From: Phycisphaerae bacterium
GTDB taxonomy: Bacteria; Planctomycetota; Phycisphaerae; UBA1845; Fen-1342
Length of the DNA: 64,000 nt
Assembly (NCBI GenBank): GCA_963675745.2
Contig: CAXXWX010000019.1
Location: 128,001-192,000 of the forward strand
Direction of reading: 5' to 3'
Shown in pieces: positions 58,535-62,618 of the stretch; position 1 is the first letter of the stretch, and each line of letters begins with the position of its first letter. The notes beneath the pieces were generated by a model. It searched no databases. It worked only from the letters and a program-made list of their open reading frames with translations, and was not told the DNA's origin. A program made the translations under genes and the position numbers.

Positions 58535-58827
58535 CGCGTCAAGTCTGCAAGCAACGCAAGCGACGGGAAAGGTAGCGTAGGTCGAGCACAGAGAGGCCTG
58601 CCGGCGGATCAGGTCACCTATTCCCGTTGGCCAGCTGCATGCTGGCCACGGGTTTCGGCGACCGTGACCGGCGCGCTCCCACGCGGTATACTCACCGTTA
58701 TGTCGCACGGTGATATTGGTTGCCACGCACCGGACGCCGTGCCGGAGCCTGTGGTGAGAAACGCCGCGATACATCGCGATTCGCCAGCGCCCCGTGGGCG
58801 GAGGCGCCCTATTGGGGGGGCAGCAGC

Positions 58828-61269
58828 ATGAGCAGGTACGGGTTCTCGATTCGTTGTCCACATTGCTTCGAATGGAGTGACTGGCCAGACGCCGACCCTA
58901 AGGCGTACGTGCTTGAGTCGGAGGAGGACCGCCAGGAAATCGTCCAGCGGCTCTATAACGATCCACAGGGGTTCGCGGACAAGCGGATGCTTCGCTGCCA
59001 GTCACCGGGAGGTGATTGTCCTGCGCCATTTGAGGCCTTTATCTGCCCCGACCGCGACAGCGCACACGCGTTCGTAGAACAGATCCCGACCTGGGCGTTA
59101 CGGCGCGCGTTTCGCCTGCATAAGTTGAACCACCAATCACGCTGGCCAGAGTATGTCGCGGTCATCTGTTGCACTAAGCCCGTCGCTCGGCAGCGCTATA
59201 TCGAGCTTGAGAGGCTAATTGACAGGACGCTGCTTAGTCGGTCGATCGTTGGCATGGCAGAGGAAGTGGGCGCTCCGATCACGGTCTACGCTGCGAAGTT
59301 CTTCGAAGTTTACGGAAAAGTGCATAAGTTCTGGATCCCCGTCGAGGCATACCATCCGGATCGACCGCACATTCCTCCGCGGTATAACCTCTTCTGCGAA
59401 GAGTGCCGCGAGGCCACGATCGGGCCGCTTCTGGATAAGTTCGACGGCAGCGTGTCCACGGAGTCGTGCCCAATTGGATTTGGGCGCGATGGGCTCTGCG
59501 CCGGAGGCGAGGCCGCGTGTGAGGAAGGCGACTGGAATCGTTGTCCTGCGTTCCTTCAAGCGCGTCGGGATCACGGTCTTTGCTATTTGTCATACCAGCA
59601 GATCATCGACGAGCTTGAGCGTAAATGGGGCCAAAACGAGCTTAAGGAACCGAAGAACGAGAGGTGGCACTGCTGGGCGGGCTTTCGCGAGATCGCCGTG
59701 CCGATAGTCGTCCATGACCATCTGGTCGCCGTTGCCATGAGCGGCCAGATTGTCGAACGCCGGAGCAAGTTGCCGGACGTGCCCACGCTTGTCAAAGAGC
59801 ATAAGCTTCTGGCCCCGGGCGAAGCGCGTCTGGAATCCCTCGTGCAGTTGCTAGGAGGCCAACGACCGCCGCGTGACGATCGTGAACGGCACACGTTGGG
59901 ATTCTGCCTCACGCAGAAGGAGATCGCCGAGCGTGCAGGCCTGTTGCAGAAGAACATCGCCCGGATCGTCCTTGCCGCCACCGCGCACTACGGACATAAG
60001 CGCGCCCGCAGCGAAGCAGTGTTTCGCCACGAATTGCTCAGCCATGTCAACTCTCCTTCCAGCAGCCCGGTTTGGTACGAAGATCTGCTCTTGACGGTCT
60101 TGGAGCGCATGCGCGAGTTCTGGGCATTCAAGGCCACGTATCTGCTGCGCTGGGAACACGGGGCTGGCCGATTGTCGGCCACGGCGCGTAGCACTCAATC
60201 CGCCCCAGGGTTGGTGTTCTCCGATGGCGAGAAGGTGCTTGGAACAATCAAGGGTGGCCCAGCACAGACCCATCCGCTTCCCTACCTGTTTGATATCGCG
60301 CGCCAGGTTAGCCCTCCGAACACGTGGGTCAGGCGTTTTGGCGACATCTTGATGAATGCGCGCGTCGACCCTGACCTCCAGATCCCCCCGGGGCACGTCT
60401 ACTTTCTCGTATCGATTCCCTTTGCGGATGAGAGCTACGCGTTTGTCTTCGCAGTGCGGGATAACGAGGTGGTGAGCCCCCTGCGCCGTCTGCTCACAGC
60501 CGGGATAAGCGAGATCTGTCAGGAGGCCATCCTGGAAACCACGACGGCGGTGGCCCACGCGCTACGCGAATTGTATCAGCGGTTTGCCCGCGAGGAGCAT
60601 ATCAAGTATGACGCGTGGCGCCGGCTATCGGAACGCGTTGCCCACAAGATTGGCAACCGGGTATTCGCGGCATTGGGTGCGCATCGACGCCTGAAGCCGG
60701 CCATCACGGACAAGGCCGGCGATGCGCTGGACAAGATCCAGAGATGTCTCGTGCAGATCAATCGCGCGTGCAACGACTTCAAGCGCTTCAGCCGTTTGCC
60801 GCCGACTCGATTCGAGCAGACGAACATCGCCGCGTTGGTTAGGGAAGAGTTGCGCGAACACCAGGGCGATCTTGGGGACCGCTTCGTGGACGCTGATATC
60901 GCATCGGATTTGCCAACGTGTACGTGGGATGGCGACCAGATTCGGTATGCGCTTGCCGAGTTGCTCGACAACGCCGTTCACCACACCGCGGACCGTGACG
61001 CGTTGCGCATCAAGGTTCATCGCGCCGATGAGGATGATCCACCGAGCATCCGGATTCTCATCGAAAACCCCGGCGTGGGAATCGACACGAGCCTCAAAGA
61101 CAAAGTGTACGAACCATTCTTCACAACGCGACCAGACGGATCAGGGTTGGGACTTGCCATTGTCCACCAGATCGTCACACAGCACGGCGGAAAGATTCGG
61201 GAAGACGGCGAGCCTGGTCGGTACGCTCGCTTCGTGATCGAGTTACCGGTTCACCCTGAAATGGAGTAA
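58828..61269 (+). CDS. Soluble histidine kinase with Cys-rich N-terminus and PocR-like sensor
   Basis: CPHC; FCEECR..CWAGFREIAVPIVV..SGQ (PocR-like); AHKIGN, ELLDNA, NPGVGI, EPFFTT, GSGLGL. Confidence 0.88.
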   Translation: MSRYGFSIRCPHCFEWSDWPDADPKAYVLESEEDRQEIVQRLYNDPQGFADKRMLRCQSPGGDCPAPFEAFICPDRDSAHAFVEQIPTWALRRAFRLHKLNHQSRWPEYVAVICCTKPVARQRYIELERLIDRTLLSRSIVGMAEEVGAPITVYAAKFFEVYGKVHKFWIPVEAYHPDRPHIPPRYNLFCEECREATIGPLLDKFDGSVSTESCPIGFGRDGLCAGGEAACEEGDWNRCPAFLQARRDHGLCYLSYQQIIDELERKWGQNELKEPKNERWHCWAGFREIAVPIVVHDHLVAVAMSGQIVERRSKLPDVPTLVKEHKLLAPGEARLESLVQLLGGQRPPRDDRERHTLGFCLTQKEIAERAGLLQKNIARIVLAATAHYGHKRARSEAVFRHELLSHVNSPSSSPVWYEDLLLTVLERMREFWAFKATYLLRWEHGAGRLSATARSTQSAPGLVFSDGEKVLGTIKGGPAQTHPLPYLFDIARQVSPPNTWVRRFGDILMNARVDPDLQIPPGHVYFLVSIPFADESYAFVFAVRDNEVVSPLRRLLTAGISEICQEAILETTTAVAHALRELYQRFAREEHIKYDAWRRLSERVAHKIGNRVFAALGAHRRLKPAITDKAGDALDKIQRCLVQINRACNDFKRFSRLPPTRFEQTNIAALVREELREHQGDLGDRFVDADIASDLPTCTWDGDQIRYALAELLDNAVHHTADRDALRIKVHRADEDDPPSIRILIENPGVGIDTSLKDKVYEPFFTTRPDGSGLGLAIVHQIVTQHGGKIREDGEPGRYARFVIELPVHPEME

Positions 61270-61275
61270 CGCGCC

Positions 61276-61896
61276 ATGCGAGTTCTCGTGGTCGATGACC
61301 TGCCAGACGTGCTGGAAGAAATAACACGTGAGATTGTATCACGGTCCCCCCTGGGCGATGAAGTGCTCGAGGTGGTGCCAATATCCGACTACAGAGAGGT
61401 GCTGGCGCCTGAGTGGACGCAGTCGTTCGAGTTCCTGATTACTGACATGCGCATGGGCGCGCAGGGATTCGAGGGCCTTGCCGTGATTGAGCATGCTGGG
61501 CGACGCGCCGACGTCGTAATCGTCCTTACGGCCTACGCCAGTATTCCAAACTGCGTGCAGGCAATGCGCGCCGGGGCATGGGACTACATCGAGAAGTCGC
61601 CCGACGACGGGGATCCGTACGAACGCCTGCTTGACTCAATGGCTGCCGGATACGAGCATCGCAGCGAGCACCCGCAGCGCGGGCAGCCCAACCCGGACGA
61701 CGCATGGGTGCAACAGAATCTTGGCCAACTTATGCTCGATTACCCTGGGGAGGTCGTCGCAGTCCTCTACGAGAGCGTCATCGATCACGATCCCAGCTTC
61801 GCGAGGGTCTCGGCTCGCGTCAAGAAACAACACCCGCTTTCCCAGGCGACGTTCGTTGCTATCCCCGACGCACAAGCGGAGGAGGAGGCAATATGA
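61276..61896 (+). CDS. Response regulator with C-terminal DUF5678-like domain
   Basis: REC: VVDD, ITDMRM, LTAY, IEK; tail AWVQQNLGQLMLDYPGEVVAV..VIDHD. Confidence 0.85.
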   Translation: MRVLVVDDLPDVLEEITREIVSRSPLGDEVLEVVPISDYREVLAPEWTQSFEFLITDMRMGAQGFEGLAVIEHAGRRADVVIVLTAYASIPNCVQAMRAGAWDYIEKSPDDGDPYERLLDSMAAGYEHRSEHPQRGQPNPDDAWVQQNLGQLMLDYPGEVVAVLYESVIDHDPSFARVSARVKKQHPLSQATFVAIPDAQAEEEAI

Positions 61897-62363
61897 ACGC
61901 GATGCAAGGCCCGCCGCCCGGCTGGAACGGTATGACTTTCCAGAACGGCCGGCCTTATGGTGTGGATATCAGGCTCACACCACCATCCAGCCGCCGTCCC
62001 CCATGGATCGCCATTAGAATCGCCCGGGCTGGGACCACCGCTTTCAAGTGGATTCCTGGGAAGCTAGACACCGGCGCAAGCCGGACGGTGCTCACGCTCA
62101 GCGATGCCGAAACGCTCGGCATACGTAGGCCATGCCGGTCCGCGCTGAGCAAGGAGGAACTCCACGCAGCCAACAAGACGAAATTGACGTGTTATTTTCA
62201 TCGCGTAACCCTGCGCGTGGGCGCGAACCAGGGCACTCAGATTCAATTCCCGCTTGTGGTCGGCGTGGCCAAGAAGCTCTCCCACACTCTGTTCGGTTTC
62301 GACTGGACCTGGCATTGCTGCCTCGCAATCGATGCCACTTCCGTGCACTTGTTGCGGAACTGA
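61893..62363 (+). CDS. Retropepsin-like (clan AA) aspartic protease
   Basis: LDTGASRTVL..AETLGI..LFGFDW; ATGA overlap with upstream stop; GGAGG RBS. Confidence 0.82.
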   Translation: MNAMQGPPPGWNGMTFQNGRPYGVDIRLTPPSSRRPPWIAIRIARAGTTAFKWIPGKLDTGASRTVLTLSDAETLGIRRPCRSALSKEELHAANKTKLTCYFHRVTLRVGANQGTQIQFPLVVGVAKKLSHTLFGFDWTWHCCLAIDATSVHLLRN

Positions 62364-62618
62364 AAAGAGGTTGCCAGGAGTGGTCAGAACGGCACGTCTT
62401 GCTGCGCCCGACATGCCCTTCCAGATTGCTTCGCCCACCGGGTTCGCACTCCGCCGCCGCGGGATGCAACGGCTGGATCCCCCCCAAAGCGGCCGCTTTT
62501 TCACCCGGCGTAATTGCGATAAGATGCTCGCTTGCCGGCGATAGCGCGGGCGCGGTGGGAAGGGATTGGAGCCTTCACCGACCCGGCGCCGTTGTCGATC
62601 CACTTGCCAGGTACGCAT

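Follow-up and report, generated by a model that had tools for sequence, protein, structure and literature searches.

A conserved three-gene cassette couples a histidine kinase and a REC-DUF5678 regulator to a retropepsin-like protease gene

What does a two-component system act on when its response regulator lacks a DNA-binding domain and the next gene, which starts within the regulator's stop codon, encodes an aspartic protease? This question is raised by a 64,000-nucleotide stretch of a Phycisphaerae bacterium genome (assembly GCA_963675745.2, contig CAXXWX010000019.1, positions 128,001 to 192,000 of the forward strand), here called the window, whose own positions are used below. Three genes on the same strand encode a kinase (58828-61269), a regulator joining a receiver (REC) to a DUF5678 domain (61276-61896) and a protease with a DTG motif (61893-62363). 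The kinase stop codon at 61269 is followed by a 6-bp gap, and the regulator TGA and the protease ATG share ATGA at 61893-61896. An earlier sequence-only reading had described this tight coupling, an intact REC without DNA-binding output, a tail of about 60 amino acids (aa) with the pattern W..N...L...YPGE.VAV....I.HD, and a stand-alone LDTGA protease, all of which we found as described. The cassette is real and conserved, and represents an apparently undescribed form of two-component signalling whose output is directed at a protease; on balance we favour, with some reserve, the view that phosphorylation gates the protease. Its features are as follows.

58828..61269, + strand: cytoplasmic sensor histidine kinase, 813 aa (HATPase_c, weak HisKA and PocR matches in Pfam)
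58855..59019, + strand: predicted zinc-ribbon-like N-terminal four-Cys site (C10, C13, C57, C64; Cys invariant in 5/5 kinases with this sensor)
59395..59721, + strand: PocR-like sensor core with an inserted four-Cys motif (residues invariant in the same 5/5)
60643..60645, + strand: predicted phospho-His606 (A-H-K-I-x-N; invariant among same-sensor kinases)
61276..61896, + strand: response regulator REC-DUF5678, 206 aa (Pfam Response_reg, E 6e-11; homologue family)
61444..61446, + strand: predicted phospho-acceptor Asp57 (invariant in 25/25 regulators)
61690..61893, + strand: DUF5678 output domain (Pfam scores of homologues; structure-model match)
61893..62363, + strand: clan AA (retropepsin/Ddi1-like) aspartic protease, 156 aa (Pfam Asp_protease_2)
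62067-62069, + strand: catalytic Asp59 of the protease

The three proteins and their families

The receiver carries the catalytic residues of canonical receivers (D7, D8, D57, T85 and K107). A search that returned 29 proteins among 516 candidates gave 24 near-full-length homologues, and in the resulting family of 25 sequences, window included (40-62% identity), D57, T85, Y104 and K107 are invariant. Pfam found no DNA-binding domain in the regulator, and its full AlphaFold2 model has a predicted local distance difference test (pLDDT) score of 90.7 and a predicted template-modelling score of 0.67. The tail, with the motif W144..N...L152...YPGE.VAV....I.HD172, matched DUF5678 (PF18929) at E 0.017 and 15.4 bits, below the Pfam cut-off of 23.2, and a DUF5678 family search of this genome gave no match at E <= 0.1. 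Among the homologues, 20/24 passed the cut-off and all 24 matched at E <= 0.011, as did 40/40 aligned tails at E <= 0.1. The AlphaFold2 model of the tail (pLDDT 92.5; helix-helix-strand-strand-helix-strand) had as its top Foldseek match a Pandoravirus model annotated as DUF5678 (template-modelling score 0.75, root-mean-square deviation (rmsd) 1.7 A, probability 1.0, E 1.4e-3). Because most homologues pass the Pfam cut-off and the structures match, the tail is DUF5678, an assignment for which the window's score alone would be insufficient; the sequence-only reading, which had staked its proposal on this identity, was right. The fold also occurs in Pandoravirus proteins (BFVD models A0A2U7UG46 and A0A2U7UD66) and in a few unannotated phage proteins. 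A Foldseek search of the PDB with DUF5678 gave nothing clear (best E 0.95), an ESM Atlas search with the tail gave no usable match, and kinship with deaminases was not accepted (VIA-align reached at best Z 4.2, with rmsd 3.0 across 68 residues).

The protease scored 25.1 bits against Asp_protease_2 (cut-off 24.3) and carries both L-D59-T-G-A and the psi-loop L-F-G135, in agreement with the definition of clan AA as Asp-Thr/Ser-Gly followed by a hydrophobic-hydrophobic-Gly psi-loop (PMC11313796). Of the NCBIfam clan AA families, TIGR02281 gave 20.4 bits, short of its cut-off of 57.95, and TIGR03698 gave no match. We placed the start at the ATG at 61893, which has GGAGG upstream, because the 12-aa N-terminal extension that results is common to the window protease and its 69%-identical homologue P0048.

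The kinase matched HATPase_c strongly (E 2e-21) and HisKA weakly (E 0.13). No transmembrane segment was found in the kinase, whose top 19-residue hydropathy is 1.44, in the regulator or in the protease. In the five kinases with the same Cys-rich sensor (the window and four relatives), H606, N715, G749/G751 and the G2 box G773-L-G775-L are invariant, as are the N-terminal C10, C13, C57 and C64, the PocR-like core residues C190, C252, C282, H296 and H298, and the insert C214-C224-C231-C239 within that core. The sequence-only reading had called this a PocR kinase, and the PocR match is real (PF10114, 24.9 bits, cut-off 23.9; E 1.9e-13 and 7e-8 in homologues), but the Cys-rich sensor is larger than the part that it matches; Atlas features gave 0.87 to PocR clusters, a lead only. 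Residues 1-121 and about 400-585 had no Pfam match. The N-terminal four-Cys motif is predicted to form a zinc-ribbon-like metal site, and the Cys-rich sensor may bind metal or Fe-S, with a redox or small-molecule input. Across the family the N-terminus varies between a tetratricopeptide repeat (TPR) array, a short helical segment and the Cys-rich PocR-like type of the window, while the kinase core retains one motif close to IKLDAWRxLSxRxAH[RK]IGN, with AH[RK]I at the H606 position in TPR-type members. The sensor is thus modular and exchangeable.

Linkage and spread of the cassette

Scans of genome and metagenome contigs, from which the best 80 of 198 and the best 80 of 269 relatives were taken, gave 34 loci matching the whole regulator at at least 40% identity; removal of 7 exact duplicates left 27 distinct loci. 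In 27/27 the next gene starts within the regulator stop codon, with an offset of -4 in 23 and -1 in 4. This gene encodes a complete member of the protease family in 25 loci; a contig end cuts it to a DTG-bearing fragment in one further locus and to 14 codons in another. A kinase lies directly upstream of the regulator in 25/27 loci, so the three-gene linkage, on which the sequence-only reading had also staked its proposal, recurs elsewhere. Pairwise identities track one another between kinase core and protease (rho 0.88, n=15), kinase and receiver (rho 0.83, n=15), REC and protease (rho 0.78, n=25) and DUF5678 and protease (rho 0.61), with a permutation p of 0.0005 for these correlations. Such tracking of sequence identities shows co-inheritance, not contact.

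The named records with the cassette comprise four Planctomycetota and one labelled Anaerolineales. Flanking genes vary between the 21 loci inspected, none of them recurring throughout the family as a fourth gene. The window cassette lies between DUF2339 (upstream) and putA (downstream), as assigned by Pfam. Of these neighbours, proposed earlier to be core-like, putA was present in 5/5 relatives; DUF2339 was present in 2/5 and is not clearly core-like. None of the three cassette genes was found at ten putA/DUF2339 loci (about 1.5-kb flanks) from the five relatives. GC content at third codon positions is 0.70-0.72 in the cassette and 0.80-0.84 in its flanks, and only 2.5% of the genome's 1372 long open reading frames have a value of 0.71 or less. 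The protease clade turned up in 2/401 phylum genomes, the window's own included, and the regulator tail matched only one stand-alone DUF5678 gene among 40 relatives. On viral contigs we found no full-length member and one REC-only locus. The cassette is rare and self-contained, and was probably acquired. A distant member, kept out of the 27-locus set, lies at L115:958-6348 (+), behind a sigma-70 region-4 gene; it comprises a GAF-type kinase, REC-DUF5678 and a DSG protease, and may have been assembled independently to a common design.

DUF5678 also keeps company with proteases outside the cassette. In a survey of 301 phylum genomes, 17 of which hold 21 DUF5678 loci, a D[TS]G protease gene lies directly downstream at 13 loci and single-chain DUF5678-protease fusions occur at two, both in one genome. 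The protease is thus next door or fused at 15/21 loci, which bears out the earlier view that DUF5678 is a habitual partner of clan AA proteases. Of the remaining loci, one has half a protease gene behind DUF5678 and the other five lack a protease. These pairs share with the cassette the domain, its order and the overlapping genes; the cassette differs in fusing DUF5678 to an intact receiver, in adding a dedicated kinase and in its protease, which forms a clade of its own. No REC-DUF5678-protease single chain was seen, which is weak evidence.

Stand-alone DUF5678 genes make up 9/21 loci; elsewhere the domain stands behind unrelated N-terminal domains, namely REC, TPR, helical domains and a 542-aa protein. 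At L172:601-2070 (+) a protein made of a TPR array and DUF5678 has a DSG protease gene behind it, so this wiring exists without a kinase as well, and different sensors converge on DUF5678. TPR arrays fused straight to DUF5678 are also present in proteins P0051 and P0053. On the simplest reading, DUF5678 is a handle linking various input domains to a protease, to which the cassette added a phosphorylation switch.

Some variants deserve mention. The fusions, L168:1289-1891 (+) and L183:1069-1671 (-), are 200 aa each, keep DSG and would be convenient constructs for a structure of the interface. DUF5678 occurs in three and two tandem copies in P0039 and P0042, and ends a 542-aa protein in P0055, whose N-terminus looks PIN-like by eye, without Pfam support.

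Proposed signal-gated proteolysis and its rivals

In the reading we favour, the Cys-rich PocR-like sensor of the window copy would read a cytoplasmic redox, metal or small-molecule signal, the kinase would autophosphorylate at His606 and pass the phosphate to receiver Asp57, and DUF5678 of the phosphorylated regulator would dock on the protease as an accessory subunit and turn it on. The transfer would follow standard two-component chemistry between partners that are adjacent and co-inherited, and docking is proposed because of the gene linkage and the natural DUF5678-protease fusions. Phosphorylated receivers tend to dimerise, and the Asp-Asp site of retropepsins forms only in the dimer. We prefer activation over inhibition because a receiver dimer would present its paired DUF5678 domains to a dimer-dependent protease. 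The protease would cut a host protein not encoded in the cassette, and the signal likely switches the protease directly, not via gene expression. In favour stand the coupled and co-inherited genes, the intact phosphotransfer residues, the exchangeable sensor, the lack of a DNA-binding output and the association of DUF5678 with proteases elsewhere.

Several observations weigh against this reading. Two of the 27 loci, L007 and L102, have no kinase (in L102 a soluble PAS protein that has no kinase domain, L102:6666-7754, lies 246 bp upstream of the regulator). No retropepsin gene follows the REC-DUF5678 gene of L173 or four further DUF5678 genes. The G1 box of the window kinase reads N747-P-G-V-G, with Asn in place of the usual Asp, although the H-box His and the HATPase N, G1 and G2 features are otherwise those of canonical two-component kinases. 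CusS-type kinases tolerate this substitution. No substrate gene travels with the cassette (21 loci inspected), and the direction of control is fixed by no result. Above all, the catalytic Asp is replaced by Asn in 3/26 readable proteases, all in the Cys-rich PocR sensor class, where they make up 3/4 of the relatives with the window's sensor type. These candidate pseudoprotease genes (L008:8405-8824, L085:8618-9037 and L088:3871-4305) are still coupled and conserved, and they branch from two places in the protease tree, probably reflecting two separate losses. The L008 and L085 proteases, otherwise intact, are 55% identical, and 35 of the 76 residues that they share are encoded by different codons; with so many synonymous changes, the fold must have a role that survives the loss of catalysis.

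The same variants, in which the fold is otherwise conserved and the coupling of the gene persists, speak for an alternative that we regard as unlikely: the protease fold would serve as a binding or scaffold partner of REC-DUF5678, cleavage would be secondary or absent, and the output would be the phosphorylation-dependent sequestration or release of a partner. However, D[TS]G is retained in 23/26 proteases, including those of the window and of its closest homologue P0048, and the natural DUF5678-protease fusions retain DSG.

The regulator or the kinase might instead be the substrate. DUF5678 would then be a tag that brings its carrier to the protease, cleavage would reset or mature this signalling protein, and the phosphorylated receiver would have some other target. 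The absence of a conserved fourth gene as a possible substrate fits this idea, as does the fusion of DUF5678 to so many unrelated N-terminal domains. The regulator also has an acidic C-terminal tail, and RimB and RloA, both retropepsins, are described as cleaving Glu-rich stretches (PMC11957791; PMC12239564). But this tail overlaps the Shine-Dalgarno sequence of the protease gene, which explains its Glu codons, and we set it aside as a pseudo-substrate for that reason. Since the stand-alone DUF5678 genes, moreover, have no carrier to cut, we consider the idea quite unlikely.

That DUF5678 is an antitoxin-like inhibitor of a toxic protease, freed on phosphorylation, seems improbable. A small upstream gene overlapping a downstream enzyme does recall type II toxin-antitoxin (TA) pairs, the distribution is patchy and TA genes adjoin four loci. 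Against this, the single-chain fusions L168 and L183 do not suit an antitoxin that is separate and labile, DUF5678 was not found to match any antitoxin family or solved fold, and inactive protease variants are kept. Finally, a purely historical linkage, in which a DUF5678-protease pair joined a receiver by chance and was carried along without functional coupling, would suit a rare and probably mobile cassette, but is very hard to credit when linkage and stop/start overlap persist in 27/27 loci, through several exchanges of the sensor and with regulator identities as low as about 40%.

If signal-gated proteolysis is correct, this two-component system would act by directly controlling an aspartic protease that needs no ATP, a class of output for which we found no published case. 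DUF5678, a companion of retropepsins in many genomes without a solved relative in our PDB searches, would gain its first function, and the switching of bacterial retropepsins a three-gene, ATP-triggered test system. With its swappable sensors the cassette would be a natural starting point for building signal-gated proteases in laboratory bacteria, and the Asp-to-Asn members raise the question of what a pseudoprotease does.

Known systems, the defence question and the surroundings

The closest design is that of Detocs (DtcA/DtcB/DtcC; Rousset et al., bioRxiv 10.1101/2023.01.24.525353). As outlined in the text of that preprint, both combine a soluble kinase with a response regulator that bears an effector-related module instead of a DNA-binding output, and TPR sensors occur in DtcA as in many cassette members. 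In contrast to the preprint's description, the cassette has no counterpart of the stand-alone DtcB receiver in the window or the 21 inspected loci. Whereas the DtcC effector (PNP, hydrolase or nuclease) is described there as fused to REC, the cassette enzyme is a separate retropepsin gene in all readable loci and the REC-fused domain is DUF5678. The window copy also differs from the published design in its Cys-rich PocR-like sensor. Lacking two defining features, the cassette resembles Detocs in design and is not a member of it.

The closest characterised protease context, as far as the text of the RimABK paper describes it, is RimB (PMC11957791), a retropepsin-like protease in a small regulatory operon with its partners, including a natural fusion with a partner. 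According to the same text, the partner is the RimK ligase, RimA and cyclic di-GMP are involved, the substrate is polyglutamylated RpsF, and the module is without kinase, receiver or DUF5678. The nearest solved structures by profile are the retroviral-protease-like domain of Ddi1 (PDB 2i1a, 4z2z; E 1.8e-4, the best match of the family profile) and APRc (5c9d; E 0.09); they share the single-domain D[TS]G protease fold, the similarity being remote, and have neither two-component control nor DUF5678. RssB and CpdR are receiver-domain adaptors in which receiver phosphorylation controls proteolysis, as proposed for the cassette, but they serve the ATP-dependent ClpXP and not a co-encoded small aspartic protease.

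A defence role for the cassette is possible. The soluble TPR kinases, the Detocs-like non-transcriptional output, the patchy spread and the TA neighbours point towards it, while the lack of a convincing defence-profile match for the clade, the mostly housekeeping flanks and the PocR-like sensor of the window copy point away. TA genes lie within about 2 kb downstream of four loci, an uncontrolled count: DarTG (L004:9598-11296), HigBA (L085:9246-9884), Phd-like (L100:6065-6367) and PIN (L107:10748-11227). PADLOC gave no match for the window regulator or protease, none convincing for DUF5678, and none to Dtc, the presence of Dtc models in this profile set being unconfirmed; weak PDC-M52B matches (best E 3e-6) concerned only proteases of stand-alone DUF5678 pairs, and the PADLOC candidate paper makes no mention of PDC-M52 in its main text. 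No TA family matched the cassette. Of the conflict or TA origin suggested by the sequence-only reading, the TPR sensors, the Detocs-like design and the TA neighbours leave a weak case, and the missing defence-profile match counts against it. A bolder version, which we think doubtful, is a Detocs-like immune or stress circuit: a soluble sensor would detect infection or damage, phosphorylated REC-DUF5678 would bring together the active retropepsin dimer, and cleavage of a conserved host protein by this dimer would arrest the cell; DUF5678 would then be a general activating subunit by which TPR, receiver and other sensors control the widespread microbial HIV-type proteases.

A literature search found no description of DUF5678 function or of the cassette; its scope left out bioRxiv supplements and a 2020 article by Burroughs and Aravind (J Bacteriol), which reportedly treats kinase-receiver conflict systems and could bear on the cassette's novelty. 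Among the texts covered, 'DUF5678' occurred in one unrelated plant paper only, and neither 'aspartyl' nor 'pepsin' appears in the main text of PMC7159879 and PMC8195603.

At L173:763-2097 (-) the REC-DUF5678 gene is followed by a 235-aa gene with GH..V.W and NCHNC motifs; its product recalls a permuted papain-like peptidase by eye and had no Pfam or NCBIfam match. In the window, promoter and terminator scans of the cassette stayed at chance level and a search for insertion-site repeats around it gave nothing convincing. Inverted arms of 16 nucleotides (58812-58827 and 62472-62487; 81% identity) bracket the cassette and may be due to chance, and the intergenic segments 58569-58606 and 62388-62423 on either side resemble a 32-36-nucleotide element present at a few other sites in the genome.

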